From assembly GCA_036787775.1 (NCBI GenBank), contig DAIQOR010000001.1:183286-247285 (forward strand): 64,000 nt of DNA, read 5' to 3'. The translations under genes and the position numbers were made by a program. Below the pieces are notes generated by a model, which did not search any database, had not been told where the DNA came from, and saw only the letters and a program-made list of their open reading frames with translations. Origin of the DNA: a bacterium. GTDB taxonomy: Archaea; Nanobdellota; Nanobdellia; Pacearchaeales; GW2011-AR1. Below, piece by piece: positions 1,817-59,495 of this stretch; within the stretch, counting starts at the first letter, position 1; each line of letters starts with the position of its first letter.

Positions 1817-2977
1817 ATGGTGAAATTTGCCCACATTTCTGACGTGCATTTAGGAGGCTGGAAACAAGAGCCCATGACTAAATTGAATTCCGATTCCTTC
1901 AAAAAAACAATCGACACCTGTCTACAAGAAAAAGTGGATTTCGTTTTAGTTGTCGGAGACCTTTTCGACTCGGCCTACCCTCCAATTGAAATCCTAAAAG
2001 AAACCTTCGCCCAATTCAAAAGATTAAAAGAAGCAAACATGCCATGTTTCATCATCGCCGGCTCACACGATTATTCCGTTTCAGGAAAAACATTTTTGGA
2101 CGTTTTAGAAAAAGCAGGATTCTGCAAAAATGTTTACGACGCCGAAGAAATGGGCGACAAAATAATACTCAACCCAATAATTCACAACAACGTCGCACTC
2201 TACGGATACCCTGGAAAAAAATCAGGAATGGAAATCCCAGAACTACGAAGAATAAAATTAAACGACGCCCCTGGGATGTTCAAAATTTTCCTACTCCACA
2301 CCTCAATAGACAAAGCAATCGGCACGCTACCAATAGATTCAATCGAAATAGAACTTTTACCCAAAGCGGATTATTACGCCCTCGGGCACCTACACATTGA
2401 TTTCCGACATGAAAACTTCGTCTACCCCGGCCCGATTTTCCCAAACAATTTCCAAGAACTCGAAGACCTAAAATACGGAAGCTTTTACATTGTCGACACA
2501 GAGTCAATAAACCCTTTAAAAAAAATAGAACTAAAAATAAAAGAAGTCGAATCTGTAAAAATAGAAGTAAAAAACGCACCAACAGCGACGAGCGAAATTC
2601 TTGCCGAACTTGAAAAAAGAAATTTAGAAAATAAAATTGTTTTGCTCAGAGTTAGAGGTGAATTAGAAAACGGAAAACAATCCGACGTTAAATTTCAACA
2701 AATAGAAGAATTTGTCAAACAAAAAGGGGCATATTTTCTTTTGAAAAACACGCACAATTTGAAAACAAAACAAATAGATTTGGGCATGAAGATAAAAGAC
2801 GACGAGAACGTCGAAGAGGAAACAATAAAAGTTTATTCTAAACAAAATCCCTCTAATTTTAATCATTTAATTCCTCAACTAATGGATTCACTTTCAATTG
2901 AAAAACAAGAAGATGAAAAAACAGAAGTCTTCACGAACAGGATTATCGACGAGGCAAGGAGGATTTTGAAATTCTAA
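1817..2977 (+). CDS. mre11: Mre11 DNA double-strand break repair nuclease
   Basis: It carries the calcineurin-like phosphoesterase motifs DVHLG, GDLFD, GSHD and GHLH. It is directly upstream of, and overlapping, rad50. Confidence 0.85.
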   Translation: MVKFAHISDVHLGGWKQEPMTKLNSDSFKKTIDTCLQEKVDFVLVVGDLFDSAYPPIEILKETFAQFKRLKEANMPCFIIAGSHDYSVSGKTFLDVLEKAGFCKNVYDAEEMGDKIILNPIIHNNVALYGYPGKKSGMEIPELRRIKLNDAPGMFKIFLLHTSIDKAIGTLPIDSIEIELLPKADYYALGHLHIDFRHENFVYPGPIFPNNFQELEDLKYGSFYIVDTESINPLKKIELKIKEVESVKIEVKNAPTATSEILAELEKRNLENKIVLLRVRGELENGKQSDVKFQQIEEFVKQKGAYFLLKNTHNLKTKQIDLGMKIKDDENVEEETIKVYSKQNPSNFNHLIPQLMDSLSIEKQEDEKTEVFTNRIIDEARRILKF

Positions 2978-5022
2978 TGTTACTTAAAAAAATAACTCTA
3001 AACAACATACGAAGCTACGAAAATCAAGAAGTAGAATTTTCCGAAGGTTCAACTTTACTGTCTGGAGACATAGGTTCAGGAAAAACTTCAATTCTTTTAG
3101 GAATAGAATTTGGATTATTCGGATTACAACCAGGACAAAGAGGCTCGGCACTTCTTCGAAACGGAAAAGACAGCGGAGGTGTGAATTTAGAATTTGAAGT
3201 CGAAGGAAAAAAGGTTTTAGTAGAAAGAACTTTGAAAAGAGGGAAAACAATTTCACAAGATTTCTGTGCGATAACCATTGATGGAGAAAAAAAAGAATTG
3301 GCAGTAACTGAATTAAAAAATAAAGTTTTAGGATTATTAAATTATCCAATTGAATTTTCAAAAAAACAAAATATCCTTTACAAATTCACCGTTTACACGC
3401 CTCAAGAAGAAATGAAACAAATAATTTTACAAGATTCAGCGACGAGAACAAACACTTTAAGACACGTTTTTGGAATTGACAAATATAAAAAAGTTTTAGA
3501 AAATTCGGCCGTAGTAATACTAAAATTAAGAGAAGAAAAAAGAATAAAGGACGCCCTAACTTCAACTTTGGACCAAGATAAATCGGAAATTATTTCTAAG
3601 GAAGACGACTTACAAATAAAGAAATATGATTCAATTTTATTAGAAGAAGATGTTTCAATAAAAAAGAAAATCCGAGAAAAAATTCAGCAGGATATGCCAG
3701 AAGTCACAAAAAAGATTGATGAAAAAAGAAATTTAGAACAAGAAGTTGCAAAAACAAAAATAATGATTTCTAATAAACAAGAGGCAATATTAAATAATCA
3801 AAATTTATCCCAGCAAATAAAAAATCAAATTCAAGAATTATCTCAAATTGTTTTCGACGAATCAAAAATTTCCCAATTTGAAATAGAAGTTCAAGCATTA
3901 AAAAAAGAGAAAGATAAATTCAGCGAGAAAAACATCCTTCTCAACGCACAAATAACTTCTTCAAAAATCAAAATAGAAGATGCAAAAAAATTAGAACAAA
4001 AGATTTCAAGCTTAGAAATTTGTCCAACTTGCCTTCAAGATGTCGACGCTATTTATCGAGCGAATGTTCTAAACAAGACACACAATGAAATTTCTCAAAA
4101 TAAAAATTTGGTTCAAGAATTAGAAATAGAAAAGAAAGTTTTGATGGAAAAATTAATTTCACTTGACTTAAAAATCTCTCAAAAACATAAAGAAATAACT
4201 GAATTACAAATGCTCAAAATTAAATATGAAGGCATGCGAGAAAAGAGAAACAGAATAATCGAAATAGAAAATTCAAATTTGTACTTTGAAAAAGATTTGT
4301 TAATTTTGAAACAACAAATTGAATCTCTGAGAAGCTCGGTTTTTAATTATTCAAAATACGACGCAATCTTTGAACAAAAACAAAAAGAGTTGGAAGAAGC
4401 CAGAAGGCAAGAGAAAATGTCTGAGATTCGAGTCGCCGAGTTGAGAAGAGAAATTGAAGTTTTCTCAAGACAAATCGACGAAATGAAAGCCCGCGTAAAC
4501 AAAACCGAAGAACTAAGATTACAACTTAATCACATTTCGGCGTTGGAAGATTGGTTGTCGAAAAAATTCATTTCAATTATTTCAACCATCGAAAGAAATA
4601 TTATGGTAAAATTAAAAGCAGAATTCTCGACGCTGTTCAACGAATGGTTTTGCATGCTCGTGTCAGACAATTTCAATGTTCGGTTAGACGAAGAATTCAC
4701 TCCAATAATTGAACAACAAGATTACGAAATCGACTACGCCTACCTTTCCGGCGGTGAACGAACAGCAATCGCCCTCGCCTACAGACTTTCCTTAAATCAA
4801 GTTATCAATTCTTTACTTAGCAAAATCAAGACAAAAGATGTTGTAATTCTGGACGAGCCGACCGACGGATTCAGCGAGCAACAACTTGACAAAATGCGAG
4901 AAGTTCTGGAACAATTGAATGTTAAGCAATTAATCATAGTGAGCCACGAGCAAAAGATTGAAGGTTTCGTTGAAAATGTAATAAGGTTCAAGAAGGAAAA
5001 CGGGATTAGCGTCAAAACGTAA
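2977..5022 (+). CDS. rad50: Rad50 ATPase
   Basis: It has Walker A (GDIGSGKTS), a long coiled coil with a central CPTC zinc hook (4021-4032), the signature LSGGERTAIALAYRL and a Rad50-type Walker B/D-loop (ILDEPTDGF). Confidence 0.85.
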   Translation: MLLKKITLNNIRSYENQEVEFSEGSTLLSGDIGSGKTSILLGIEFGLFGLQPGQRGSALLRNGKDSGGVNLEFEVEGKKVLVERTLKRGKTISQDFCAITIDGEKKELAVTELKNKVLGLLNYPIEFSKKQNILYKFTVYTPQEEMKQIILQDSATRTNTLRHVFGIDKYKKVLENSAVVILKLREEKRIKDALTSTLDQDKSEIISKEDDLQIKKYDSILLEEDVSIKKKIREKIQQDMPEVTKKIDEKRNLEQEVAKTKIMISNKQEAILNNQNLSQQIKNQIQELSQIVFDESKISQFEIEVQALKKEKDKFSEKNILLNAQITSSKIKIEDAKKLEQKISSLEICPTCLQDVDAIYRANVLNKTHNEISQNKNLVQELEIEKKVLMEKLISLDLKISQKHKEITELQMLKIKYEGMREKRNRIIEIENSNLYFEKDLLILKQQIESLRSSVFNYSKYDAIFEQKQKELEEARRQEKMSEIRVAELRREIEVFSRQIDEMKARVNKTEELRLQLNHISALEDWLSKKFISIISTIERNIMVKLKAEFSTLFNEWFCMLVSDNFNVRLDEEFTPIIEQQDYEIDYAYLSGGERTAIALAYRLSLNQVINSLLSKIKTKDVVILDEPTDGFSEQQLDKMREVLEQLNVKQLIIVSHEQKIEGFVENVIRFKKENGISVKT

Positions 5023-16257: not shown

Positions 16258-16311
16258 ATTATAAATTTGTCATTTAGCTTTATTAAGTTTTGTATAATTT
16301 TTCTTATATTT

Positions 16312-17640: not shown

Positions 17641-17641
17641 T

Positions 17642-19129: not shown

Positions 19130-19163
19130 AACAATTAATAGTATTCTTTGTTTAAAAATATTC

Positions 19164-20591: not shown

Positions 20592-20601
20592 TTAAATCTT
20601 A

Positions 20602-22996: not shown

Positions 22997-24082
22997 CTAA
23001 CCCGCCCCCTCCGGCTGTTTCAAATGCAAAAACATTATAAAAACAAAATTTATCAACGAAACTCCCGCAACCATAATTAAACTAATCATCCCAGTACTTA
23101 AAGAAATTCCAAGCCCACTAATTTTCATCATCATCAGCAACAACATTAAAATCATCGGCGCGGCAATCACAACACTGATATAAATATCCATAAAAGTCTC
23201 CGACGCCCGAGTCTGTTTTTCTCTGTCAAGTTTATACTCAAACATAAGCGTCTCCGCCCGTTTATTAAAAAACTCCGTAAGATTTCCACCCGAATTTATC
23301 GAAGTCGCAAGCCCGTTAAAAATCTCCGCAAGTTTCCGACTTGAACAATTAAACGCCCGATTCCTCAACGCTGTAACCAAATCATAACCCAAAACATTTG
23401 TCTCATTAAGTAATTTAATCAATTCCTTCTCGGTATAAGGATATTCGTGCGTCGAAACAACAATACTAAAAATTTTACTCGGTTCAATCATCGAACCCGA
23501 AATTGAAGCCATGTGAATCGTCGCGAAAGGAAGTTCTCGGTCAATCCGTGCTTCAATAGATTTTTTCTCCAAAGAAGGATAAACAAACATCGAAATAAAA
23601 GTCACCGCAGGAATTAAAACAATAATCCAAACAAACATAACCATCCGACTCAAAAATCCTTCTCCCGCAAAAACAATCATTGGAAACGGATCAAAACTAA
23701 AAAACAAAAAGAAAATAAAAAAAAGAAACCCAACTCCAGCAGAAATCAAAGTCGTCAACAAAATCAAAGAAATATAATTCACCGGAAGAAATTGCAGATT
23801 AGATTTAATTAAATCTCTTTTCATAGAATCAAAAGCTTTATTGTCCACAAGCACCGAAGATTTTTTGTAAAACATTTTACTCGCCAACTGAACATAATTA
23901 TTTGGCTTTGCCTCAACATCTTTTTCCTCTTTCTCTTTTTTCTCCTGTAATCTTTTCAAAGTTTCCTTTTCAAAATCCGTAAGCCGATATTTCTCGTCCA
24001 TCTTCCTCGCCAACAATTTTTTTTCTCGAACTTCTACCTTTGAAAGCTTTCGCACCCCTTTAACCATAAAAAATAGAAACAA
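22997..24082 (-). CDS. type IV pilus platform protein (T2SSF domain, TadC/FlaJ-like half)
   Basis: It is a polytopic membrane protein adjacent to the secretion ATPase. Two T2SSF genes indicate a split FlaJ. Confidence 0.6.
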   Translation of the reverse strand: MFLFFMVKGVRKLSKVEVREKKLLARKMDEKYRLTDFEKETLKRLQEKKEKEEKDVEAKPNNYVQLASKMFYKKSSVLVDNKAFDSMKRDLIKSNLQFLPVNYISLILLTTLISAGVGFLFFIFFLFFSFDPFPMIVFAGEGFLSRMVMFVWIIVLIPAVTFISMFVYPSLEKKSIEARIDRELPFATIHMASISGSMIEPSKIFSIVVSTHEYPYTEKELIKLLNETNVLGYDLVTALRNRAFNCSSRKLAEIFNGLATSINSGGNLTEFFNKRAETLMFEYKLDREKQTRASETFMDIYISVVIAAPMILMLLLMMMKISGLGISLSTGMISLIMVAGVSLINFVFIMFLHLKQPEGAG

Positions 24083-24101
24083 ATTAGATTATTAAATATT
24101 C

Positions 24102-25661
24102 CTATTGAATCCCGTATTCTTTCAAAACTTCCAAAGGTTTTTTATAATAATTATTTATGATTTCCTGAACTTTTTCAAATCCAAAAACTCCCTGAACTTG
24201 CATCTTATGCAAAAGTTGAACTCTTCTGGCAAATTCCCTTTCCAATTCTTCTCTTTTAATTCCATACCGTTTCATAATTTTTTTAAAAATATGACTATTA
24301 CTTTTAAAATAAAATTGGTCTTCCCCAGGACTCCAAACAAAAGGCGTGTTCGTAATTGCAACCCCTTTTTCACTAACATTAATTATCTCAACAATTTCTT
24401 TCAACTTTCTCGTGTCTTGTTTTTTAACAATCGCGTGAGTCATAATACAAACACAATCCAAAACATTCAACAGCGTCGGTGAAAGTTCAATCGGCGGAGT
24501 TTCCAATCTTTGAATAACAGTCTCAACCGAGTCCGCGTGAATAGTTCCAATCGACGAGTGTCCTGACGCCATACCCTGAAAAAGAACATTCGCTTCCTTT
24601 CCCCTAACCTCACCAACAATTACATAATCAGGAATCTGTCTAAAAGAACTTTTCAACAAATCAAACAAAGTAACTTCTCCAGCTGTCCCGCCTCCAGTCG
24701 CACCACGCACAACACTCGGCAACCAATTCTCCCTCGGCAAATTCAACTCACGAGTGTCCTCAATTGAAACAACTCTATCTTCCGGCGGGATAAAAAACGC
24801 AAACGCATTCAACAAAGTCGTCTTACCCGAACCCGTTCCACCAGCGATAAGCACGTTCATTTTATATTGTACAAGCATCCAAAGATACGCCAACATTTCA
24901 GGACTCAAAGTTCCAAACTCAATCAGCTGAGGCGGAGTCCACGGCGTTTTAGTAAATTTACGAATTGTAAAAGTCGGACCTCTACTCGTAATATCTTTCG
25001 TATAAGTCGCATTAACCCTCGAACCATCCGGCAAACTCGCATCAAGAATCGGATTCGCGTAAGAAATATATCTTCCACTTCTCTGCGCCAACTTTTCAAC
25101 AAAACTTTCAAGAACCGTAATATCATTAAAAATCAAATTCGTTTTAACATTTCTATAAACACGATGAATCATATAAAGCGGAGTATCGACGCCGTTACAC
25201 TCAATATCCTCGACGAAATAATCTCTCAGCAACGGGTCAAGTTCATTAAACCCGATAAAATCCCGACAAAGATAATAAAAAATCTTCCGATAACTTTCAT
25301 AAGGAATATTCATCCCTAACTCCACCGCCAAAATTTTAAACATTCTATCAATATAATCCATCAACTCCGAAATATCTTTCTGAATAACTTTATCAAAATT
25401 AATCATATTCTTAATCGCAATAATTAATTCGTCTTTCTGCTTTTTCTCAACATCTGTCAAAGCTGGTTCCTCGACATCATAAATAACTTCAGAAGTTTTT
25501 GCATTCCAATAAACGTGTGCAAACGCAAACGGCGACACCAACGCGTACCGAACATTAATCCGCGACTTGTCCAATTGTTTCTTCATCGTCGGAATCTGCG
25601 GATTATAATTTATCTCGACCTTCGGGTAATTTCTAATATCGTTTTGAACTTTCGTCACCAT
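24102..25661 (-). CDS. FlaI/PilB-family secretion ATPase (type IV pilus / archaellum assembly)
   Basis: It has Walker A (LIAGGTGSGKTT), Asp box, Walker B and His box and is 519 aa. Confidence 0.8.
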   Translation of the reverse strand: MVTKVQNDIRNYPKVEINYNPQIPTMKKQLDKSRINVRYALVSPFAFAHVYWNAKTSEVIYDVEEPALTDVEKKQKDELIIAIKNMINFDKVIQKDISELMDYIDRMFKILAVELGMNIPYESYRKIFYYLCRDFIGFNELDPLLRDYFVEDIECNGVDTPLYMIHRVYRNVKTNLIFNDITVLESFVEKLAQRSGRYISYANPILDASLPDGSRVNATYTKDITSRGPTFTIRKFTKTPWTPPQLIEFGTLSPEMLAYLWMLVQYKMNVLIAGGTGSGKTTLLNAFAFFIPPEDRVVSIEDTRELNLPRENWLPSVVRGATGGGTAGEVTLFDLLKSSFRQIPDYVIVGEVRGKEANVLFQGMASGHSSIGTIHADSVETVIQRLETPPIELSPTLLNVLDCVCIMTHAIVKKQDTRKLKEIVEIINVSEKGVAITNTPFVWSPGEDQFYFKSNSHIFKKIMKRYGIKREELEREFARRVQLLHKMQVQGVFGFEKVQEIINNYYKKPLEVLKEYGIQ

Positions 25662-25707
25662 CTTCTTTAAAGTATAAGATAAAAATAGTTTATTAATTTA
25701 ATGCTTG

Positions 25708-28700
25708 TTATCTTTTACAGCACCAGTCGGGAGAATCATCACTTGTATTATGATAAGTTAAATTAGTTTCAACACCCGAAGAGTCTCTGGTAAATATATC
25801 TGCAAGTGGCCTTACTCCTGGCTCGCTAACGCCACCTTTTTCATAAACAATCTGAGTTCCATCTGGAGACCAAGAGGCTTCATATCCATAGGGCAAGGGT
25901 GTAGTTTCGCCATTGCTGAGATCCATAATATCCAACCCCTCAAGAATAAGTTTACGACCATCTGGAGAAATAATATTATTAATTTTTCCAGCAAATTCCA
26001 CCGGCTCAAGACTTATTTTTGTAAGTCCTGTTCCATCAGTATTTATCGAATAAATGTGTTCATCATATTCTTGGCTATGCACAAGATAGATTGTCTTTTC
26101 ATCATTTGACCAACCGAATGAAATATAAGGTTCATTATCTCCAAGAATACCTCCCATTACTTTTGTTTCTTCTCCACCATTAACCGAAGAGAAATAAACC
26201 CCGTCATAAGTTTCCGAGTCAGAATTAACTCGTGTAAACACAACTTTGTCTCCTTTTGGAGAGATGATTGGAAAGAGATCACACATAGCATTTTCCGAAG
26301 TATTTTCCGTAATATTAAATCTTTCAGTTCCATCGGCATTTATCTTAACAACGTTACAAAAAAGATCCTTATCATCACTATAAACAAGAATATTATCAAC
26401 AGGGGATAAAGAAAACAGAGGATCATTATCATCTCCCTCATACCCGCTCGAAATTTTTACAATATCGCCCCCGTTGGAATTCATTGTATAAAGTTCTCTC
26501 CGCCCACTTCTATTAGATACAAAAGCAAGCCCGCTACCGTCGGAAAACCACAAAGGAAAAACATCCTCCGAAGAATTATTTGTAATTCTCATTAAATTTC
26601 CTCCGCTCGGAGACATAGTATAAATTTCAGAGTTCCCGTCTCTAAAAGAAACAAAAGCAATTTTTCCATTATATCCTGTGATACACCCAAAATGAATCTC
26701 CTCATCCCCGTCGTCACAATCTGTATTATTTGTAGAATATCCCGACGGCAAATTTTCCCCAGAACATATTTGTTCCAACGGAGAAAAGTTATCTCCATAT
26801 CCATCTCCATCAAAATCTATATACCCTTCTAAAAATTGATAAACAGAATCATCCGAATCATTACAATCAGTCCCTAAACATTCTGAACCCTCGCCGTAAC
26901 CATCCAAATCTGCATCCACGCAATCTAAACAATTATCATAAACACTTCCATCAGAATCATCACAATCTAAATTATTTCCCGAATATCCCGACGGCAAAGT
27001 CGCACCAGAACAAATTTGTTCAAGCACTGAAGAATTATCTCCGTAGCCATCCCTATCAAAATCTAAAAATCCTCCTAAAATTTGATAAGCCGAAACATCA
27101 AAATCATCACAATCGCTTCCCAAACAATCAATACCTTCACCATAATTATCTAAATCATTATCGACGCAGTTTGGACCTGAAGAATTATTCGAAACACCCC
27201 AAGAAGGATTAAAATCCCCGTTCGGGTTATCTGTCAATTTAAATAAATGATTTCCATCTGAGTCAATCATATATAACTGGTGTGGTTCTCCGCTTGCACC
27301 CTCGTCAAAAACTATCGAGTGCCCACTTGGGGACCAAGAAGGGTTTCCACTTATTTCATTACTACTTGTCAATCGAGCTGGATTACTTCCATCAGAATTC
27401 ATTTTCCAAATATTCATTCTACTATCCATGCTCTGTGAAAATGCTATCTGAGTTCCATCTTTCGAAAATTCAGGGGTATCCCCTCGAGCAGTGTAAGTTG
27501 TTAACTGAGTAATATTAGAACCATCAGAATTCATTTTCCAAATTTTTCCAAGACCAATTCTTTGAGAACAAAAAGCAATCTCGCCCAAAGAAGACCAAGA
27601 AGGATCGACGTCTTCCGATTCAAAAGTTAATTGTGTCAACCCAGTTCCATTGTCATTTATCACATAAAGGTTTCCTCTTTTTTCATAAACAATCTTATTA
27701 TCCTGAGACCAAGACGGATTTTGTTCAGAATCATTCAAGGTAGAAGTTAATCTTACCAAATTAGAACCATGAACATCCATAATATAAATATCGCCTTCTC
27801 TCGAGAACGCAATCCTCTCGCCATCCGGAGAAATAGAAGGATCTATCTCTGTCAAAGAATTATTTGTTAATTGAACTATGTTAGAATTATCCCCCTCCAT
27901 AATTTTGATTTCCAAATCATTTCCATCATATGAAGAATAAACTATTTTCCCATCAAAAGTAATCATCTCTGGATTAGATTCAACCTCACAATTCCCCGTC
28001 CCAACATTACATTCATAACCTGAAACGCAACCAGTATCGACGCAAGTTTCAACAACTTCTTCAGAGCTCGCAATAATCTCTTCAAAGTCAATTGGCGTAG
28101 CTTCATAATCCACAAGAGTCTTACCAAGAATTTCTACTTTCATTCCAACTCTCGCTTCAGCCCCAAGATACAAATCCCAGTTCGGGATATCCGCATCAAA
28201 TCTAAAGGATTGAAACACGCTCGCGTTCGGACCAACAACGCCATAAAGTAAAAAATCCGCCCAAAGTCCCAAATAAGTTTCCACATCAACATTTGCATTC
28301 ATAATTGGTGCATTAAAATCATAATTATAATCATAGTCTTTTAAAATTTTCCAACCATTATCATATTCGATTCCTGCAGTAAACTCAGCAAATTGCGAAA
28401 CGCCAACTTTCAACTCTTTTCCTTCCCCATCAGCACCAACTCGCAATTCAATATGGGGAGTAAAATAAATTGGAAAACAAACAGTCCAAGGATTAGGAAC
28501 GCAAGTAGCAAGAGTTGGCAAATCATACTCTACCAAAGTAACTCCATCACTCATTCTAAATCTTTCAGCCGTCGATTCAATACTTAATGCCGAGTCCTCA
28601 CTTCCAGTCAAACCAATCAAGGCATAATTTAATTTCCCCCATTCAATGTCCGCCTCAAATAATAATTCAGAATCAAATTTTATGTGGCCATTCGCAAAAA

Positions 28701-29238
28701 CTTGATCATCAATCGTTCTTTTATTTCCATCATAATCAAAAAGCACGACGTCAACTAAATCAAAACTAAAAAGTTCTGCTTGCGGAGTAAAAGTCACGCC
28801 CTTTCTCAACTTTTGCATTGAAGCACCCTCGGGGGACAATTTCATTTTAATTCTAATTTCTGCATTTTCAAAAGCATCTTCCAAAGTCGCCTGTGACGTT
28901 TCAAGAATCTTCCCTTCATCTTTGACGCTTTCAACTTTTCTCAAAACACCTCTCGGCACAGTATCGTTAAGCCCACTAATCACATCCCCCACATGATAAT
29001 TTGTAGAACTATCAAACGTGAAAACACCATCGCTGTATGACCATTCCCCTTTAGAAAAATTATCCTCCAAATTATAAGCCCCATTCTCCCCCGAAGGATT
29101 ATTAATCGTAATTGGATTTATTTCCTTTCCAGTTTTTTCATCCCCCGAACCAGAACCACAATATGAACTCATCGCAATAGCACCAGCCAATAAAATATTT
29201 TTTCCCTTACGCAAAATTCTCTCGAGACTCATAAGCAA
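25708..29238 (-). CDS. giant (1176 aa) surface protein with TolB-like beta-propeller repeats and Cys/Asp-rich DLDGYGEG repeats
   Basis: It has an N-terminal signal with a Cys at residue 27 (SSYCGSGSG), repeated DG(S/T)N..LT blades, and four C..D.DLDGYGEG...C.D.D modules. Confidence 0.6.
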   Translation of the reverse strand: MLMSLERILRKGKNILLAGAIAMSSYCGSGSGDEKTGKEINPITINNPSGENGAYNLEDNFSKGEWSYSDGVFTFDSSTNYHVGDVISGLNDTVPRGVLRKVESVKDEGKILETSQATLEDAFENAEIRIKMKLSPEGASMQKLRKGVTFTPQAELFSFDLVDVVLFDYDGNKRTIDDQVFANGHIKFDSELLFEADIEWGKLNYALIGLTGSEDSALSIESTAERFRMSDGVTLVEYDLPTLATCVPNPWTVCFPIYFTPHIELRVGADGEGKELKVGVSQFAEFTAGIEYDNGWKILKDYDYNYDFNAPIMNANVDVETYLGLWADFLLYGVVGPNASVFQSFRFDADIPNWDLYLGAEARVGMKVEILGKTLVDYEATPIDFEEIIASSEEVVETCVDTGCVSGYECNVGTGNCEVESNPEMITFDGKIVYSSYDGNDLEIKIMEGDNSNIVQLTNNSLTEIDPSISPDGERIAFSREGDIYIMDVHGSNLVRLTSTLNDSEQNPSWSQDNKIVYEKRGNLYVINDNGTGLTQLTFESEDVDPSWSSLGEIAFCSQRIGLGKIWKMNSDGSNITQLTTYTARGDTPEFSKDGTQIAFSQSMDSRMNIWKMNSDGSNPARLTSSNEISGNPSWSPSGHSIVFDEGASGEPHQLYMIDSDGNHLFKLTDNPNGDFNPSWGVSNNSSGPNCVDNDLDNYGEGIDCLGSDCDDFDVSAYQILGGFLDFDRDGYGDNSSVLEQICSGATLPSGYSGNNLDCDDSDGSVYDNCLDCVDADLDGYGEGSECLGTDCNDSDDSVYQFLEGYIDFDGDGYGDNFSPLEQICSGENLPSGYSTNNTDCDDGDEEIHFGCITGYNGKIAFVSFRDGNSEIYTMSPSGGNLMRITNNSSEDVFPLWFSDGSGLAFVSNRSGRRELYTMNSNGGDIVKISSGYEGDDNDPLFSLSPVDNILVYSDDKDLFCNVVKINADGTERFNITENTSENAMCDLFPIISPKGDKVVFTRVNSDSETYDGVYFSSVNGGEETKVMGGILGDNEPYISFGWSNDEKTIYLVHSQEYDEHIYSINTDGTGLTKISLEPVEFAGKINNIISPDGRKLILEGLDIMDLSNGETTPLPYGYEASWSPDGTQIVYEKGGVSEPGVRPLADIFTRDSSGVETNLTYHNTSDDSPDWCCKR

Positions 29239-41317: not shown

Positions 41318-42091
41318 TCAATAACTCTTCCACAAAACCAACTTCCCAAAATCATCTCTCAAAAACAAAGTGTCCCCGCCATCAGTCCAAACATAATCTT
41401 TTCTATCCCAATAAATTTCATTTTCTGTATTAGTTTTATTCCCAACAATCAAACTAACTTCTCCTTTCCCATCCAAAATAAAATTTGGAAAAATAAATTT
41501 TTTCCGACCCTCGTCCTTAACTTCCCAGTTCTCTAAATCGCAATCAATCCCACAAATATTTTCAAAAACAACAATTTCATTTTCGTAATCCAACTTTTTC
41601 AAATTAACACAACTCGCACAAGCGTCCAAAGATTTCACACAAAGATTTTTTCCACAATTTTTCCACGCCTCCAAAAATTCAAAATAATATTGATCTCTTC
41701 CCAAAAAATAAATATTCGCATAACCTTCCTCAACCAATTTTTTATTCACATTCTCATTATTATAAAAAACATAAGCAAGCTTTCGACCATACAGGTCTTT
41801 TTTATCGACGCCAAACTTCAAAACAACTTTCTTTCCCAAAATTAAATTATCCAAAAAATCCTTCGCCTCAGAATAATAAATTTCTCCTCTCTCTGGACAA
41901 TTAATTCCCAACAGCCGAACCGATTCATTGTTCGCAACAAAAGTGTCCCCATCAATAACCCTCTCGACAACCACAACTTCTTTTTCTTCAAAAAAATTCA
42001 CGACGGCAGAATCCAATTTTCCATAATTAATTCCAACCAAAATAACAACTGCAAAAACCAAAATTAAAATATCTAATTTTTTATTAACCAT
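41318..42091 (-). CDS. membrane-anchored staphylococcal-nuclease (SNase/thermonuclease)-like nuclease
   Basis: VIDGDTFV...VRLLGINCPE matches the SNase catalytic region. It has an N-terminal TM. The probable start is the MVNKK at 42091 (the ORF is open to 42124). Confidence 0.6.
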   Translation of the reverse strand: MVNKKLDILILVFAVVILVGINYGKLDSAVVNFFEEKEVVVVERVIDGDTFVANNESVRLLGINCPERGEIYYSEAKDFLDNLILGKKVVLKFGVDKKDLYGRKLAYVFYNNENVNKKLVEEGYANIYFLGRDQYYFEFLEAWKNCGKNLCVKSLDACASCVNLKKLDYENEIVVFENICGIDCDLENWEVKDEGRKKFIFPNFILDGKGEVSLIVGNKTNTENEIYWDRKDYVWTDGGDTLFLRDDFGKLVLWKSY

Positions 42092-42348
42092 AAAAAGTGT
42101 AGGAAAGGGTCTCGAAAGACCCAAACATTAACCAAAGTTAACGCTTCCTACAAAAAGTTATTAGCTTTTATCCTTTTTAATTTTTTCCGAGTATTTCAAA
42201 GTAAATACAAGATCGTCGAGAAACAATGAAAATTTCAATTATTTATTAGTAGATTGTGTTTATAAATTTTTTGTAAAAAATCTAAAATTATTTTCTTTAA
42301 ATCGTCTTTAGAAAAGTTTTATAAGTTGATTATATTTATGAACTTCAT

Positions 42349-51979: not shown

Positions 51980-52762
51980 ATGATTAAATTCGGACCAGCA
52001 TCTCTCGGTGGAGTTAAAGAAGCAGAGAAAAATCTTGAAGAATTCCACAAATTAGGACTTCGAGCCTGCGAAGTTTCCTTCACCAGAGGAATATATATCA
52101 AGAAAGAAGAGGACGCAAAACGAATAGGAAAAAAAGCAAAAGAGTTAGGAATACAGCTCAGCATTCACGCGCCTTATTACATTAATCTAAATTCAACAGA
52201 TAAGGAAGTCATTAAAAAAAGCAAACAAAGAATTCTAAAATGTTGCGAAATCGGAACTCATCTTGGAGCTTACAGAGTAGTTTTCCACGCAGGATTTTAC
52301 GGAAAAATTGACCGAAAAGAATCTTATGAAAACATCAAAAATCAAATTTTAGATTTACAAAAATCAATAAAAGAAAAAGGTTACACACCGAAACTCGCAC
52401 CAGAAATAATGGGAAAAATAAATGTGTTCGGAAGCATCGAAGAAATCAAAAAATTGACTCAAGAAACCGGCTGTCAATTCTGCATAGATTTCGCACATAT
52501 TCTCGCAAGATACAAAAATTACAATTTCAAAGAGGTCTCAGAAGAATTTTCCAAATTTGATGAATGGCACGTTCATTTTTCCGGAATTGAATATGGTGAC
52601 AAAGGTGAAAAGCACCACAAAAAAACCGAGGAATCAGAGTTCAAACGCCTTTTCGAGAATTTACCGTCGAGAAAATCAATAGTTATAATAAATGAAAGCC
52701 CAGACACTTTAGAAGATTCTGTGATTGGAATGAACTTATATAAGCATAAATTTTCTAAATAG
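51980..52762 (+). CDS. xylose-isomerase-like TIM-barrel protein (endonuclease IV-like AP endonuclease family 2)
   Basis: It has an N-terminal GPASLGG and HAPYYINL, and later HAGFY...DFAH metal-ligand-like motifs typical of Nfo/TIM-barrel isomerases. Confidence 0.45.
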   Translation: MIKFGPASLGGVKEAEKNLEEFHKLGLRACEVSFTRGIYIKKEEDAKRIGKKAKELGIQLSIHAPYYINLNSTDKEVIKKSKQRILKCCEIGTHLGAYRVVFHAGFYGKIDRKESYENIKNQILDLQKSIKEKGYTPKLAPEIMGKINVFGSIEEIKKLTQETGCQFCIDFAHILARYKNYNFKEVSEEFSKFDEWHVHFSGIEYGDKGEKHHKKTEESEFKRLFENLPSRKSIVIINESPDTLEDSVIGMNLYKHKFSK

Positions 52763-54210: not shown

Positions 54211-54672
54211 ATGTTAAACATAGATTCAAAAATATTTTATGAAATATTGGATGAAGAGTTTAGAAAAGCATCTTTTGAATTGGGATTAGAATTCAAAGAT
54301 TTAGATGAAGCCTGGTTCAAGATGACAAGATATGAAGAAACTCAAGAGGCGATAAAAATCACTGAAAGCTATTTGGGTATTTCACTTTCAACTTTGGAAA
54401 AAGTCGAATTAAGAAGAAATGTAGAAATTACAATGGCCTATAAAGGGGGAGAATTCACCCTAGGAGCACAGCCATCAAACGAGGCTTCTTTAAATTTTAG
54501 GCTAGATAATTATGGAGCAGACTTAAGAAATTTTGCACAAAGAAAATGGCTCGAAAAAATAAACAGAGACATAATAAAACAAAGAGGATATAATCCACTT
54601 AAAGCACATTTTGAGATGGTTAGTCAAAAAATTCACACGCCAGGATTAAAAAGTTTCAATAAGGAAAAATAG
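54211..54672 (+). CDS. hypothetical protein
   Basis: 153-aa ORF. Confidence 0.4.
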   Translation: MLNIDSKIFYEILDEEFRKASFELGLEFKDLDEAWFKMTRYEETQEAIKITESYLGISLSTLEKVELRRNVEITMAYKGGEFTLGAQPSNEASLNFRLDNYGADLRNFAQRKWLEKINRDIIKQRGYNPLKAHFEMVSQKIHTPGLKSFNKEK

Positions 54673-54674: not shown

Positions 54675-57536
54675 CTACAATTTCAAACTAATAACTTTAC
54701 TAATGCCCTCAAACATGCTAACCCCATAAAGATTCGTCGCGTTTGAAATAACTTCGTCGTTGTGCGTAATCACTAAATATTGTCCTTTCTGCATATATTT
54801 TTTCAATAATCCTGCAAGTCTCTCGGAATTTCTTTTATCCAAAGCAGCGTCGATTTCGTCAAGAATATAAAAATAATACGGTTTCAATTCTTGAATTCCA
54901 AAAATCAAAGACAACGCAACCAGCGTCTGCTCCCCTCCGCTCAAAGAAGTCACATCAAAATATTTTCCGTGCCCCATCTTAACAATTATATTAACTCCTC
55001 CTTCAAAAGGATCTTTTTTATTTTCCAATTCCAAAGTCACCTCGCCCTTCAAACTCAACTGCGAAAAGTTACGCGAAAAAATCTCGTTCAACTCGCTCAG
55101 CGTCTTCAAAAATGTCTTCTTTTTCTTAATATCAATCTCATGAATAATTCTCATCACACTTTCTTTCTCACTCGTTATCATATCAACCTTCCCCTTAACC
55201 AACTCATACTCTGCCTTAATCTCATCATAAACTTCCAACGACCGCAAATTAACATTCCCTCGAATACGCGAAAGAATCTCACTCGAATTCGCCAATCTCT
55301 CCGCAAGCGTCTGCCGGTTCCCATTAATTATTTCAACATTATCAAAATCCAACATTTCAATTTCTAAATTCTGAATCTCCGCCCCGACCCTCGCCAAATC
55401 AATCTTAAAATTATTTACATCGCCCTCAACTTTATGCACGTCGTTCTGTTTCGAAAAAAGCACCAAATCCAATTCCTTTATTTTCCGTCCATATCCGTCC
55501 CGCTCGCCAATCAACTTATTAAATTTCTTACTCAATTCCTCATCCTGCTTTTTCTTATTCTCCAAAACACTTTCTTTCTCTCCAATTATTTTTTGCAAAG
55601 ACATTATCTCCTGATCCAAATCGTCCTCGTTCCTTTCCAACTGCTTCAAAGAAATCTTCGCCCGCTCAAGTTCCTTCATCTTAAAAGAAATCTCCGAACT
55701 CACATTTTCCTTCGTCCTCAAAGAAATTTCCTGAATCTCCACCGACGCTGTTGCATACCTTTGTTCAATTCCAGAATTCTCATCAAAATTCTCCTCAAGA
55801 TTTTTCTTCCTCTTTGCAAGTCCTTCAAGCTCTCCAGTCAAATCAAAAATCTTCTCCCTCAAATTTTTCACCTGTTCTCGCTTTGTATTAATATTATTAA
55901 TTTTAACCAAATCATTTTCCCGATTAGAAATCTCTTCCCTTATCTGCGAAATCTCAATTCCCAAAACTTTTCTCTGCTCGTAAATTTTACTCAACTCCTT
56001 ATCCGACTTATCCATCTCACTTTTCAAAAGATTAATTTTCGGCGAAGCCTCTCGCTTAATTTCGTGAATGTGCTCCTTCGTTATTTTACTTTTACAAAGC
56101 GGACAAATATCAATCTTCGCGATATTCTCAATCAATTTTCCCTGCTTATCAATTTCATATTCATTCGTGTGCGCAATCTTTTCCAAATCAATTTCCCGTC
56201 GACCAAGATTCTCAATCAACTCTTCCTTCTCTTTCAAAATAAATTTCAACTTCTCCAACTTCTCTCGGTCACTTCGTTTATCAAACAACTCCAAAGACAA
56301 AGACTCAATCTGCTTCATAAAAAAATCCGACTCGTTCGTATAATTCTGAAGAAGATATTTTTTATCTTGAATTCTCTCGCCAATCGCTTTCAAATCCGAC
56401 TTAACCATATAAAATTTCTTTCGCTGTTCTTCAAGTCTTTCCAACTCCCGTTTCTTCCTCTCAATTTCTTTTCTATTCCCATCCATCGTCGGTGATTCCT
56501 TCCGCAAATCCTTCAACGAAACGTCCGACTCACGAATCATATTTTCAAGTTCTTCTTTATGCCCAGAAATCTCCGAAACTTTTCTCTCGCTATTTTCCAA
56601 CTTAACTCTTAACCCTTCCAACTCCGCCCGCAAATCCGCAATCTCTCGATTCAATTTTTCCTGCTCAAAACCCGCCGACTTCTGCATCGTCTCATTAATT
56701 GAACTAACTTTCGACTCATTATCATTTATCGAACTTTTAATTTCCATAATTTCTTTTTTCCCTTTTTCTATTTCTTTATTTTTCTTTCCAATTTCCTCGT
56801 CAACTCTTTCTTTATCTTTCCTCTTCAAATTCAAATCGTGAAAAATAATACTCGCCTTGAAAGTCCTAACATCTTTTTCCAATTTTTTAAATTTCAACGC
56901 CTGCTGTCTTTCCTTTTCAAGATTATTCAAATAAGATGTCCTCTCTCTCAGCGTCGCCATAACTTCACTCAATCGACTTTCAGTCCTCTCCAATTCCTTC
57001 AAAGATTTTTCCTTTCGCGATTCGTAAATAGAAATTCCCGCAACCTCCTCAATAACTTTTCTTCTTTCCTCCGTGTGCATTTTAACAAAATTCTGAATCT
57101 CTCCCTGAAGAATAATATTAAATCCGTTCGGGTCAATCCCTCCCTGCGCCAACAAACCCAAAACTTCCTGACGCGTTTTCGTCTCCCCGTTAATTTTGTA
57201 AATACTCTGCCCGTTCCTTCGAACAATTCTCTTAATAGAAATTTCCGAAGCATCTAATGTAAAAGTTTTCTCAGAATTATCAAAAACAATTTCAACAATT
57301 GCTTCCTTCGCCGGTGACGCCGCCTTCGAACCAAGAAAAATTAAATTCTTCGCCTTCGCTGCCCGCATAGATTTAATACTCAAACGCCCAAGCACAAAAC
57401 ACAACGCATCCGTAACATTACTTTTTCCAGAACCATTCGGCCCAAGAATAACATTAATCCCCGGCGTAAACGGCAACTCTGTTTTCCGAACAAAACTCTT
57501 AAATCCTTGCATCACCAATCTTTTAACATAAGTCAT
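54675..57536 (-). CDS. smc: SMC-family ATPase with central CxxC zinc-hook in place of a hinge
   Basis: It has SMC-type heads: N-terminal GFKSF...ILGPNGSGKSNVTDALCFVLG and C-terminal LSGGEQTLVALSLIFGIQ...YILDEIDAALD. About 400 aa of coiled coil lies on each side of DICPLCK at residues 476-482 of 953 (56091-56111). Confidence 0.75.
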   Translation of the reverse strand: MTYVKRLVMQGFKSFVRKTELPFTPGINVILGPNGSGKSNVTDALCFVLGRLSIKSMRAAKAKNLIFLGSKAASPAKEAIVEIVFDNSEKTFTLDASEISIKRIVRRNGQSIYKINGETKTRQEVLGLLAQGGIDPNGFNIILQGEIQNFVKMHTEERRKVIEEVAGISIYESRKEKSLKELERTESRLSEVMATLRERTSYLNNLEKERQQALKFKKLEKDVRTFKASIIFHDLNLKRKDKERVDEEIGKKNKEIEKGKKEIMEIKSSINDNESKVSSINETMQKSAGFEQEKLNREIADLRAELEGLRVKLENSERKVSEISGHKEELENMIRESDVSLKDLRKESPTMDGNRKEIERKKRELERLEEQRKKFYMVKSDLKAIGERIQDKKYLLQNYTNESDFFMKQIESLSLELFDKRSDREKLEKLKFILKEKEELIENLGRREIDLEKIAHTNEYEIDKQGKLIENIAKIDICPLCKSKITKEHIHEIKREASPKINLLKSEMDKSDKELSKIYEQRKVLGIEISQIREEISNRENDLVKINNINTKREQVKNLREKIFDLTGELEGLAKRKKNLEENFDENSGIEQRYATASVEIQEISLRTKENVSSEISFKMKELERAKISLKQLERNEDDLDQEIMSLQKIIGEKESVLENKKKQDEELSKKFNKLIGERDGYGRKIKELDLVLFSKQNDVHKVEGDVNNFKIDLARVGAEIQNLEIEMLDFDNVEIINGNRQTLAERLANSSEILSRIRGNVNLRSLEVYDEIKAEYELVKGKVDMITSEKESVMRIIHEIDIKKKKTFLKTLSELNEIFSRNFSQLSLKGEVTLELENKKDPFEGGVNIIVKMGHGKYFDVTSLSGGEQTLVALSLIFGIQELKPYYFYILDEIDAALDKRNSERLAGLLKKYMQKGQYLVITHNDEVISNATNLYGVSMFEGISKVISLKL

Positions 57537-57575: not shown

Positions 57576-58247
57576 TCAAAACCCCAACTTCCTCTGCCCA
57601 CCACTTTCAAAAGCTTTCTTCCAAGTTATCCAAGTCTTCCGAAAAATTCCGTCGTCCTGAAATTTCCGAGCATTCTTCAAAACAAACTTCTGCGTATTCG
57701 GATCCGAAGTATAACCCGAACCAATCTCATCACCATATTTTTTCTTGAGTTTATCCATCTGTCTTTCTCTTTCACTCTTCGCAAGAATCGACGCTGCCGA
57801 AACCGAAATATGATTTTGATCTGCCTTATGCTCACAACTAATTTCAAGATTAGAAAGATTCTTCACTTTAGTTTTCAAATAATCAGTCCATTTTGCAATG
57901 CTCGTCGACGGACAATCCACAATAACCCGAATTTTATCCGAACCCTTATTTAATTTATCAATTATTTTCGCACACGCAATCGCCTCTACTTCATTCAACT
58001 TTATTCTCTCGCCCCCGTCGCCGTCAATCTCTTTCGGAAAAATAACAACAACCTCGAACGCCTCAACCTTCTCCCGTATCAACTCCGCCAAATGCTCCCT
58101 TCTCTTCGCCGTCAACTGCTTCGAATCCTTCACACCCAAAATCTCCAACTCTCTCTCAAGTTTTTTATCCAGAAGGCAACCCGCAAGAATCATCGGTCCT
58201 ATAACTGGCCCCCGTCCCGCATCGTCAATTCCAAGAATTAATTCCAT
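57576..58247 (-). CDS. rnhB: ribonuclease HII
   Basis: The N-terminal ILGIDDAGRGPVIGPMILAG is the RNase HII signature. Confidence 0.85.
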   Translation of the reverse strand: MELILGIDDAGRGPVIGPMILAGCLLDKKLERELEILGVKDSKQLTAKRREHLAELIREKVEAFEVVVIFPKEIDGDGGERIKLNEVEAIACAKIIDKLNKGSDKIRVIVDCPSTSIAKWTDYLKTKVKNLSNLEISCEHKADQNHISVSAASILAKSERERQMDKLKKKYGDEIGSGYTSDPNTQKFVLKNARKFQDDGIFRKTWITWKKAFESGGQRKLGF

Positions 58248-58281: not shown

Positions 58282-58683
58282 CTATGGCCAAACATATCCC
58301 AAATCAGCACTAACATTTTCACTAAATTCAAAATAAAAATCTCCGTCCTTCCTCAACAAATTACTCTTATGCGAATCGTGAAAATTTTTATCTCCAAACC
58401 ACTTCGGCAAAATTATCTTTCCCTCAATCTTTTCAAGTTTCATAGTATTCTTATAACCTCTCGCAATCCAAAGTTTAACCGACTTATTAAAATACAATTT
58501 CAAAGCATTCTCGTAACCTCGCCACATCTTAACCGCCGGATGATTTTGCCAACCTTTCTTATCCGTCCGCTCCAAAAGAATATTCAAAATCTGAAACGCC
58601 TCGACCCTCTGCTTCCCAAGTCTCCGACTATCCAAAGCCTTTAATGACTTCTTCAAATTCGGATACGGCAAAAAAGTTTGCAT
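58282..58683 (-). CDS. possible pyrimidine-dimer DNA glycosylase (Pyr_excise family)-like protein
   Basis: The LD.RRLGKQRVEA.QIL ... GW.NHP ... W pattern resembles the Pyr_excise family. The similarity is weak. Confidence 0.35.
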   Translation of the reverse strand: MQTFLPYPNLKKSLKALDSRRLGKQRVEAFQILNILLERTDKKGWQNHPAVKMWRGYENALKLYFNKSVKLWIARGYKNTMKLEKIEGKIILPKWFGDKNFHDSHKSNLLRKDGDFYFEFSENVSADLGYVWP

Positions 58684-58830: not shown

Positions 58831-59343
58831 TCAACCAATATTAATCTGAACTTTTTTAGAAATATCAAAACCTGTAATATCCAAATTCGCTTTAACATAC
58901 CATTTAACATTTCTCATATTTCCCGTCAATAACTGCGCGGACTTCACAAGATTTCCAATCATTCCCTCATGATTCGTGTTAACATTTTGCGGAACTTTCA
59001 TTTTAAAATCATAAACTTTCTCCCCAATTTGATATTCTTTCTTTCCATCCAGAGGTTGAGAAAATTCAAAAACTTTTTGAGTTCTCGAAGACGAATGCCC
59101 AGAACCATAACTCGTACTCTTCATTTCTCCCACAAGCCCAACATTCAACGTCTTCGCATTAACTGGCTTTTTCAAATTAAGAATAACTTTCCCCTCAATG
59201 GTGTCGCCCGCAGAAAAATTAAAATTCGTCAACTCAATTTTTATTCCACCTTTCATTTTTGAAATAATAAACATAATCAAACCGAGCAACAAAATCGCCC
59301 CAGCAACAATAAGAACAATGTACATCATCTCCATAGAAAACAT
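58831..59343 (-). CDS. membrane-anchored hypothetical protein
   Basis: The ORF is open to 59427 but would overlap tRNA-Ser. The internal Met at 59343 precedes the TM helix. Confidence 0.4.
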   Translation of the reverse strand: MFSMEMMYIVLIVAGAILLLGLIMFIISKMKGGIKIELTNFNFSAGDTIEGKVILNLKKPVNAKTLNVGLVGEMKSTSYGSGHSSSRTQKVFEFSQPLDGKKEYQIGEKVYDFKMKVPQNVNTNHEGMIGNLVKSAQLLTGNMRNVKWYVKANLDITGFDISKKVQINIG

Positions 59344-59414
59344 AACAAATAACCTTTTATAAAATTTTAGGAAGACAAACACTTTTAAATTGTGAAATAT
59401 CTTATTCTTTGTAC

Positions 59415-59495
59415 GCCCCGATCGCATAGTGGTTATTGCGCCGGTTTGCTAAACCGGGCCCTTTGGGCTCGCAGGTTCAATTCCTGCTCGGGGCG
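59415..59495 (+). tRNA. tRNA-Ser (GCU)
   Basis: It has acceptor GCCCCGA/UCGGGGC, anticodon loop UUGCUAA, a 13-nt variable arm hairpin and T-arm GGUUCAAUUCC. Confidence 0.8.

Follow-up and report, generated by a model that had tools for sequence, protein, structure and literature searches.

What the hinge of an SMC protein does beyond dimerising is a long-standing question for condensin, cohesin and Smc-ScpAB, with DNA binding, an entry gate and a share in loop extrusion as its proposed additional roles. The archaeal locus described here raises the question of what to make of a protein that joins SMC heads to a Rad50-type zinc hook. The gene, smc, lies on the reverse strand of the window that was analysed (the whole 64-kb stretch of DNA) at 54675..57536, where an uninterrupted open reading frame encodes 953 aa followed by a stop codon; it was assigned from this reading frame and from matches to SMC_N, TIGR02168 and the SMC head structure 5xei, and the window does not contain any N. 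The first-pass annotation had described SMC heads, a central CxxC motif and no hinge in this frame, and every motif that it quoted was found where it had been placed. Our preferred reading, to which we give a probability of roughly 0.8, is that the gene encodes the orthologue of SMC, the chromosome-organising ATPase (condensin-like Smc), in a tiny, uncultured DPANN archaeon of Pacearchaeota type, and that its hinge of ~160 aa has been exchanged for a Rad50-type zinc-hook module of ~40 aa, with the loss of a few tens of arm residues. The central proposal of the annotation, an SMC chassis with a zinc hook where the hinge would be, is backed by its sequence, by profile searches, by the predicted structure and by phylogeny.

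The two halves of the ABC ATPase head lie at the ends of the protein. Within the N-terminal half (aa 1-167; 57036..57536, reverse strand), delimited from the translation and the invariant residues of an alignment, are FKSF and GPNGSGKSNVTDALCFVLG, the Walker A motif GPNGSGKS (aa 32-39, nt 57420-57443), R58 and the Q-loop residue Q144. The C-terminal half (aa 828-953; 54678..55055, reverse strand), supported by translation, alignment and the structure 3kta_B, carries the signature LSGGE (aa 865-869, nt 54930-54944), the Walker B/D-loop segment YILDEIDAALD (aa 890-900, nt 54837-54869) and the H-loop residue H925. A 44-sequence alignment shows no variation in Walker A, R58, Q144, the signature, the Walker B glutamate E894, the D-loop or H925, and the Pfam model SMC_N matches aa 3-942 with an E-value of 1.9e-54. 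Judged from their sequence, these are canonical ABC-ATPase heads of SMC type, and each catalytic motif is intact.

Relatives of the hook-bearing SMC were collected from NCBI, JGI, ENA and Logan and cover no fewer than 79 species-level genomes and over 120 protein clusters. Nearly all are ~950 aa long, with a 946-963-aa architecture on independent contigs, and the central CPxC was present in 120/120 homologue clusters among the matches listed and at each of the 79 genome loci that cover the apex. Phylogenetic analysis was performed by neighbour-joining only and on head columns alone; with the apex excluded, the hook clade was recovered in 97/100 bootstraps from the head/neck columns and was nested among hinge-bearing archaeal SMCs, while its sister link to a hinge-bearing clade from Woesearchaeota was weak (8/100). 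Those hinge-bearing near relatives that have names are Woesearchaeota plus one with a Nitrospiraceae label, and none is named Pacearchaeota, which is only indirect evidence on whether these genomes have a second SMC. Hookless short variants of SMC, such as PIU75690.1, were also seen in passing among the relatives, in Pacearchaeota. Long MAG contigs with the hook-bearing gene include CAZXHH010000001.1 (358 kb), CAWJRC010000004.1, JBAQGX010000003.1 and JAKADZ010000001.1.

The gene neighbourhood was then compared across these loci. Upstream of smc by 39 nt and on the same strand is rnhB (57576..58247), encoding RNase HII (PF01351, 2e-45), and rnhB holds this upstream position on the same strand as the hook-bearing SMC in 63 of 79 loci. 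The same rnhB-smc order occurs at the hinge-bearing SMC of Woesearchaeota and at the hookless short SMCs, such that the hinge, hook and further-reduced hookless forms all sit just downstream of rnhB. Orthology of the heads to canonical archaeal SMC, nesting within hinge-bearing SMCs and this common gene order support one of the two identities that the annotation had offered, an unusual or reduced SMC. The immediate neighbours of smc are rnhB and a surface protein, with no Mre11/SbcD pairing at the gene. Repair genes are found around smc, encoding RNase HII, a pyrimidine-dimer glycosylase and an AP endonuclease-like protein. A convergent 153-aa ORF (54211-54672) was considered as an SMC partner and rejected, having no Pfam match and being present in only 1/79 loci.

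The alternative that survives best, although we consider it unlikely, is that the gene encodes an extra SMC paralogue with a specialised role in DNA repair or defence, acting beside a canonical hinge-bearing Smc. Its setting among repair genes would suit such a role, and two types of SMC can occur together in archaea (PMC8665677). However, the hook-bearing protein occupies the same position next to rnhB as the hinge-bearing Woesearchaeota SMC, and its clade lies within the canonical archaeal SMCs and does not form a separate deep branch. The absence of a Pacearchaeota name among the hinge-bearing near relatives also speaks against a paralogue, as does the one metagenome-assembled genome (MAG) with two hook-bearing loci, where the copies are 100% identical, and no second SMC was detected among the Pfam-annotated ORFs of the 64-kb window. 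The best reading is that the hook-bearing protein is a replacement of the hinge-bearing SMC and not an additional paralogue, with the caveat that a second SMC elsewhere in the genome was not assessed.

Absence of the hinge was assessed with two kinds of model. The Pfam family SMC_hinge (PF06470) gave no match in the 953-aa protein even at E<=10, and a custom HMM, built from those hinges of the nearest relatives that Pfam had confirmed, detected 98 hinge-bearing relatives and not this protein. A hinge remnant was therefore rejected. The nearest relatives with a hinge are longer than this protein by ~190 aa.

At the centre of the protein, alignment, an apex profile, AF2 and Foldseek define a hook loop, IDICPLCKSKITKEH (aa 475-489; 56070..56114, reverse strand). 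It includes DICPLCK (aa 476-482, nt 56091-56111); within this motif, CPLC (aa 478-481, nt 56094-56105) marks the midpoint of the 953 residues. The protein has three cysteines in total (46, 478 and 481); C478, P479, C481, T486 and H489 are invariant in the 44-sequence alignment, a degree of conservation well beyond chance, and the cysteines of the hook remain invariant down to relatives of 39% identity. The Pfam model Rad50_zn_hook (PF04423) matched aa 467-505 at 21 bits, slightly under its 24.3-bit cut-off, which it passes in some homologues. Searched against the PDB, the apex profile retrieved the Rad50 hooks 1L8D (1.6e-8), 6ZFF (9.8e-8) and human 5GOX (6.8e-5) and nothing else of note, the best non-Rad50 match being at E=0.02. 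Both the sub-threshold PF04423 match and the apex-profile match to 1L8D bear out the CPxC hook region that had been proposed for the centre of the protein. Aligned to the apex profile, the P. furiosus motif CPVCGRELTDEH has the same CPxC/T/H spacing, and the loop and its flanking coils each add to the Rad50-hook profile score, the contribution of the coils being order-dependent.

Structure prediction pointed to the same fold. The AF2 apex model (pLDDT 94.4) consists of a helix, a 12-aa loop and a helix, and its top Foldseek match among 350,542 chains was 1L8D_B (TM 0.78), with an E-value of 0.027 that is not significant for so simple a fold. From alignment and model, the apex is established as a predicted helix-loop-helix whose loop has an invariant CPxCxxxxTxxH homologous to Rad50 hooks. 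Each chain offers two cysteines near the apex and no second conserved histidine, so a four-ligand zinc site needs two chains. The inference from the invariant cysteines and the homology to 1L8D, made without binding data, is that the hook would bind one Zn2+ through four cysteines from two chains and form a cysteine-dependent dimer.

It is also conceivable, but quite unlikely in our judgement, that the central CPxC has an origin separate from Rad50 or holds no zinc between chains, serving instead, for instance, as a redox or intrachain motif at a plain coiled-coil turn while the chains dimerise at some other site. The motif is short, the PF04423 score is slightly under its cut-off, the Foldseek E-value is not significant, and the existence of hookless relatives means that the cysteines are dispensable in some lineages. 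Against this, the family profile finds the P. furiosus Rad50 hook at the E-value given above with only Rad50 hooks above noise; the spacing is that of Rad50, the coils add order-dependent score and the cysteines do not vary over the range of identity sampled. An intrachain four-ligand site is impossible with two cysteines per chain and no conserved extra ligand. Which hook served as the source is a separate matter that scores could not settle: the apex profile gave 36-41 bits on the hook region of the window's own Rad50 and 37.7 bits on P. furiosus Rad50. Whether the hook derives from the organism's own Rad50, from the Rad50 of another lineage or from convergence cannot be told from these values.

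Between heads and hook run two arm strands of near-canonical length (~307 and ~340 residues, ~45-50 nm). In the full-length AF2 model the N-terminal strand (aa 168-474; 56115..57035, reverse strand) is predicted as helices 168-343, 354-415 and 424-474, and the C-terminal strand (aa 490-827; 55056..56069, reverse strand) as helices 487-586, 590-604, 612-729, 741-759 and 765-827; overall, the model shows helix over aa 168-827, with the chain turning back on itself at aa 475-486. Conservation is higher in the neck near the head (aa 168-230) than in the distal arm. This model is informative for the arms and apex, while its heads, modelled with a shallow alignment, are of low confidence; it was not used for the fold search. 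Matched arm deletions were considered in view of gaps of ~29 and ~30 aa at query positions 422 and 589 relative to the hinge clade, and were rejected since gap placement in coiled coil is unreliable. The two positions do not lie opposite one another in the hairpin, and we therefore claim no more than a shortening of the arms by a few tens of residues.

Heads, coiled coil and a CxxC apex are also the overall layout of the Rad50/SbcC and ASRP/ClsN/Sph families, and the protein has weak NCBIfam matches to their models, but membership in either is highly improbable. The SMC models TIGR02168 (E=1.4e-148) and TIGR02169 (5e-146) far exceeded the best Rad50 model (3.5e-31); in bits, SMC models reached 488-497, whereas Rad50 models reached at most 108 against cut-offs of 700-1087, the cut-off of the best one being 700. 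The protein nevertheless stays under the curated cut-offs of the NCBIfam SMC models (496.6 vs 567.35 for TIGR02168; 488 vs 729.4 for TIGR02169), a shortfall that corresponds to the absent hinge columns. Among PDB structures, SMC heads matched at 5e-101 to 1e-61, with the P. furiosus SMC head 5xei at 5e-101 and the P. furiosus C-terminal head 3kta_B at 1e-32, compared to ~1e-15 for Rad50 heads, a difference of ~85 orders of magnitude. The other identity offered by the first-pass annotation, a distinct SMC-like family such as ASRP/coalescin, was not supported: the ASRP model NF045487 scored 93.1 bits (cut-off 300) vs 497 bits for SMC_prok_B, and its matches were confined to the coiled coil and hook.

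The window furthermore encodes a separate, bona fide Rad50, which was used for comparison and represents a possible kind of donor for the hook. The rad50 gene (681 aa; 2977..5022, forward strand) follows mre11 (1817-2977) in an mre11-rad50 operon spanning 1817-5022, and its product has a CPTC hook at aa 349-352 (nt 4021-4032). As the annotation had remarked, its Walker B is of the DEPT type (LDEPT), in contrast to the SMC-type DEID in YILDEIDAALD. Rad50 or ASRP membership was rejected on the curated model and PDB head scores. An assembly or annotation artefact, in which a deletion or frameshift took out the hinge, is practically ruled out, as we found no point in its support, the frame is continuous without ambiguous bases, and length and motif are kept across all sources of relatives. 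Either a match to a hinge HMM or a frameshift or assembly gap would have refuted the original claim; both were examined and neither was found.

In the preferred reading, the hinge-to-hook swap took place once, in the ancestor of the clade, with recombination with a rad50 gene as its probable route, and some descendants later lost the distal arm and the hook as well. It is not excluded that Pacearchaeota keep a natural series at one locus, from hinge to hook to neither, which would show that SMC can function in vivo without any particular apex domain.

In the proposed mechanism, two protomers would each give two cysteines to one tetrahedral Zn2+, yielding a constitutive homodimer linked through the tips of the arms, which would do the job performed elsewhere by the hinge. 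ATP-driven engagement and disengagement of the heads, with an unidentified kleisin presumably bridging them, would then drive DNA entrapment and loop extrusion as for Smc-ScpA(B). Zinc binding, dimerisation and cellular function of the hook-bearing SMC are all inferred and none was measured. Four Pfam scans of the ~40 ORFs in the window gave no match to ScpA (PF02616) or ScpB (PF04079), and neither was found in de novo ORF clusters of 79 related loci or in the Pfam-annotated contexts of nine further loci. The search was made without an archaeal ScpA seed close enough to Pacearchaeota. Since ScpA and ScpB were not recognised near the gene, the kleisin step remains an assumption. Additionally, the homologous CPxC hooks, the similar coils and the equal profile score on the organism's own Rad50 hook make mixed zinc-hook heterodimers of SMC and Rad50 conceivable, which would physically couple a chromosome-folding motor to the Mre11-Rad50 machinery for break repair in these minimal cells; we regard this as a very unlikely speculation.

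The literature searched held no description of a zinc hook on a naturally occurring SMC, and the swap was known to us only from laboratory constructs, although the search was limited and provides only absence of evidence. The analysis indicates that evolution made the hook swap and that an entire archaeal lineage has retained it, amounting to hundreds of protein clusters, and so offers biochemistry and structural work a natural, long-tested SMC without a hinge. It also shows that surveys and curated models in which SMC is defined by the hinge overlook or under-score such proteins; examples of this blind spot are the hinge-seeded sequence sets in PMC5344682 and the TIGR02168/02169 cut-offs.

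Compared with known systems, the hook-bearing SMC has in common with the canonical Smc of Smc-ScpA(B) (P. furiosus, B. subtilis) its orthologous heads, all ATPase motifs, a long antiparallel coiled coil and a conserved neck, and differs in lacking PF06470 and having the ~40-aa CPxC module instead. With Rad50/SbcC (PF04423; 1L8D, 6ZFF, 5GOX) the relationship is reversed: the CPxCxxxxTxxH apex and its flanking coils are homologous and the predicted fold is nearest to 1L8D, whereas the heads are of SMC type and the gene is not paired with mre11, the mre11-rad50 operon lying elsewhere in the window. The ASRP proteins (ClsN/coalescin, Sph1/2; NF045487; PMC9389158) are likewise archaeal and combine SMC-like heads with an apex zinc hook, but they constitute a separate, shorter family (profile ~590 aa), while the heads described here are bona fide SMC heads.

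Two further systems concern SMCs without a hinge. The "hinge-less" SMCs of marine Actinobacteria (Sussfeld et al. 2025, PMC12153180) are natural SMC-clade proteins in which the hinge was lost; however, they are bacterial and explicitly without a CXXC hook, whereas here a hook has replaced the hinge, and the hookless short Pacearchaeota variants are their closer analogue. The engineered B. subtilis Smc(Zh) chimera (2017, PMC5344682) has the same design, SMC heads and arms with a Rad50-type hook for the hinge, and gives normal growth, indicating that the hook-for-hinge architecture is workable; the reverse swap of hinge for hook works in yeast Rad50 (PMC6969161). Unlike the chimera, the archaeal protein occurs naturally, is ancient and has become fixed throughout a lineage, and its hook has diverged and is not a recent graft. 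It is best read as the natural counterpart of Smc(Zh).

The hook SMC gene (54675-57536, minus strand) is an uninterrupted frame of 953 codons, in a window free of ambiguous bases. Neither a frameshift nor an assembly gap, which could have refuted the first-pass annotation of a Rad50-style zinc hook on an SMC chassis, was found. Translation recovered every motif quoted there at its assigned position: Walker A GPNGSGKS (aa 32-39), the signature LSGGE (aa 865-869), YILDEIDAALD (aa 890-900) and DICPLCK (aa 476-482; nt 56091-56111, minus strand), the last lying, as claimed, at the exact centre of the 953 aa protein. Only three cysteines are present (46, 478, 481). The contrast drawn between this DEID-type Walker B and the LDEPT of the Rad50 encoded in the same window (2977-5022) also held.

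The heads proved to be SMC-diagnostic, in agreement with the first reading. Pfam SMC_N gave a single match over aa 3-942 (1.9e-54), and two prokaryotic SMC equivalogs (NCBIfam) matched at 1.4e-148 and 5.4e-146, both broken into two stretches flanking the absent middle of the protein. In NCBIfam, the top Rad50 model reached 3.5e-31 (108 bits; cut-off 700) and the model for archaea-specific SMC-related proteins (ASRP) 93 bits (cut-off 300). Among solved structures the best matches were Pyrococcus and Bacillus SMC heads (5e-101 to 1e-61), followed by eukaryotic SMC1-4, with Rad50 heads only at ~1e-15. Walker A, R58, Q144, the signature motif, D893/E894, the D-loop and H925 were invariant in a 44-sequence family alignment; since all catalytic residues are retained, the sequence argues for a putatively active ATPase.

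At the apex, SMC_hinge found no match in the hook SMC even at E<=10 (Pfam), so the second result that would have refuted the proposal did not materialise. The Pfam Rad50_zn_hook profile (PF04423) did match centrally, at aa 467-505, but scored 21 bits, slightly below its 24.3-bit cut-off. An apex profile built from 24 diverse segments (query aa 433-526) and searched against all PDB sequences recovered the Rad50 hooks of P. furiosus (1L8D, E=1.6e-8; 6ZFF, 9.8e-8) and human RAD50 (5GOX, 6.8e-5; 9Q9H, 2.6e-3), after which the next match was noise (E=0.02, 18 bits). Motif spacing was the same in the apex CPlCkskiTkeH and Rad50 CPVCGRELTDEH in the profile-PDB alignment. The same profile scored the hook region of the window Rad50 at 36-41 bits, and shuffling controls showed that this score draws on the loop and, in an order-dependent way, on the coils to either side. 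C478, P479, C481, T486 and H489 were invariant across the family alignment, with variable flanking coils. AlphaFold2 modelled the apex as helix, 12-residue loop and helix (pLDDT 94.4), and Foldseek against 350,542 PDB chains returned 1L8D_B as the best match (TM 0.78/0.72); the weak E-value (0.027) is expected for a helical hairpin. The full-length model, in which the heads were poorly modelled, was helical over aa 168-827, with a turn at aa 475-486 and a paired discontinuity at 343-354 and 604-616. At its apex the protein carries a Rad50-type hook whose CPxC is homologous to that of Rad50, bearing out the proposed architecture. Because each chain carries two conserved cysteines and lacks a second conserved histidine, a four-ligand zinc site is inferred to require two chains, as in Rad50; zinc binding and dimerisation remain predictions.

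The hook SMC is a family and not an accident. A word-indexed search returned at least 120 homologue clusters at 64-80% identity, nearly all of 951-953 aa; the central CPxC occurred in 120/120 clusters listed, and precomputed domains included PF04423 in a few and a hinge in none. Named clusters were annotated "chromosome segregation SMC family protein" and came from Nanoarchaeota or uncultured archaeon MAGs. Scanning one genome per species yielded 79 loci in MAGs inconsistently labelled Pacearchaeota, Woesearchaeota or Nanoarchaeota, and all loci covering the apex encoded CPxC. One hook-SMC contig (L058, DATJPO010000036.1) lies within a 'Candidatus Omnitrophota bacterium' MAG, and a near-relative hinge SMC (P0183) is labelled 'Nitrospiraceae bacterium'; in each case an archaeal contig was probably assigned to a bacterial MAG during binning. 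Two contigs of MAG CAZOAN01 (L038 and L039) each carry one hook SMC, and their 100% identity over 954 aa led us to reject paralogy in favour of assembly or bin redundancy.

HMMER was run exhaustively against 1.84 billion cluster representatives, and sorting the matches with a purpose-built hinge HMM revealed a graded series of forms: hook-bearing proteins (946-1023 aa, identity down to 39%), a few hingeless, cysteine-free proteins (779-804 aa) and, for the remainder, hinge-bearing SMCs (799-1203 aa). In a neighbour-joining tree of 441 head and neck columns, with the apex left out, the hook proteins and four short hookless ones formed one clade (97/100 bootstraps) that fell within the hinge-bearing SMCs of archaea; support for joining it to one hinge clade in particular (17 representatives) was weak (8/100). 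Named proteins were Pacearchaeota in the former clade and Woesearchaeota in this nearest hinge clade. The hook was inherited from a single origin. Relative to the nearest hinge clade, query aa ~457-494 replace a hinge of ~160 aa (aa ~495-653 of the Woesearchaeota protein P0149), and the query is ~190 aa shorter overall, its arms being shorter by a few tens of residues. Apex-cysteine-free, hingeless short SMCs were seen in some Pacearchaeota (P0141, P0142, P0145, P0148, P0271, P0278; loci L083 6001-8415 and L086 6001-8346); these lack about query aa 350-610, the part of the arm beyond the predicted break in the coiled coil.

Two hook-bearing proteins carried an intein in the P-loop. A large insertion directly after the Walker A region was observed in P0122 (1479 aa) and P0130 (1483 aa), and likewise in hinge-type representatives of ~1660-1800 aa (e.g. 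P0158, P0167), so that the query match of such proteins starts at aa 36-38. According to Pfam, the P0122 insertion is an intein containing a LAGLIDADG homing endonuclease; for the other insertion-bearing SMCs, inteins are inferred from length only.

The co-oriented gene rnhB (RNase HII; 57576-58247, minus strand) ends 39 nt upstream of smc, an arrangement found in 63/79 loci, and a convergent surface-protein gene lies downstream in 54/79. RNase HII also precedes the hinge-bearing P0149, on the same strand, and the hookless short Pacearchaeota SMCs; two further hinge-clade loci lacked rnhB and had a CARDB-like surface protein downstream. Tree and gene order together argue that one orthologous gene has passed through the hinge, hook and hookless forms in turn, and that these are not paralogues; a second SMC, searched for in the window only, was not found there. 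DNA-repair genes flank smc, namely rnhB, an AP-endonuclease-2/UvdE-like protein (51980-52762, plus strand; nearby in 23/79 loci) and a pyrimidine-dimer DNA glycosylase (58282-58683, minus strand; 5/79); only rnhB is widely syntenic. A convergent 153-aa ORF (54211-54672, plus strand), ending 3 nt before the smc stop, matched nothing in Pfam and had a homologue in just 1/79 related loci; it could be specific to the lineage or no gene at all.

Elsewhere in the window, mre11 and rad50 form a pair (1817-5022, plus strand), the stop of the one overlapping the start of the other at 2977; at 681 aa this Rad50 is unusually small and so has short arms, and its hook CPTC lies at aa 349-352 (nt 4021-4032, plus strand). 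Adjacent, overlapping HepT-like RNase and MNT-type nucleotidyltransferase genes (8169-9076, minus strand) look like a toxin-antitoxin pair. A long run of genes on the minus strand (13411-29238), where GC skew is strongly negative, includes a T2SSF-like membrane protein (22151-22996, minus strand) and a 1176-aa PD40/beta-propeller protein (25708-29238, minus strand) and may form a cluster related to the cell surface or to pili. Two proteins have domain combinations seldom expected in an archaeon: arrestin N/C-like matches in a 198-aa protein (58831-59427, minus strand) and a 268-aa staphylococcal-nuclease and lamin-tail fusion (41318-42124, minus strand).

Mechanistically, a Zn2+-bridged constitutive homodimer at the apex would take over the dimerising role of the hinge, and ATP-driven head engagement would then act on DNA as in Smc-ScpA(B). 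This inference is plausible because the same design has been engineered experimentally, in B. subtilis Smc(Zh) (PMC5344682), and yeast Rad50 is functional with the MukB or B. subtilis SMC hinge replacing its hook (PMC6969161). The hook-SMC arms are near canonical length. Across the family, conservation is higher in the head-adjacent neck than in the distal arms, consistent with a conserved partner, for instance a kleisin; the kleisin is an assumption, and neither the window nor the surroundings of the gene in related loci yielded a ScpA or ScpB.

In the literature searched, no naturally occurring zinc-hook SMC was described, and such a protein goes unmentioned in an archaeal SMC survey (PMC8665677). 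A survey seeded on the hinge, as in the methods of PMC5344682, would by its design pass over natural hook SMCs. The hinge-less SMCs of marine Actinobacteria described in 2025 were stressed to be without CXXC (PMC12153180). With Rad50 the hook SMC has only the hook in common, and with ASRP/ClsN only the general architecture. It is prokaryotic Smc that the hook SMC works like, its function being inferred, and from which it descends, differing in that it fails the Smc hinge criterion and curated score cut-offs.
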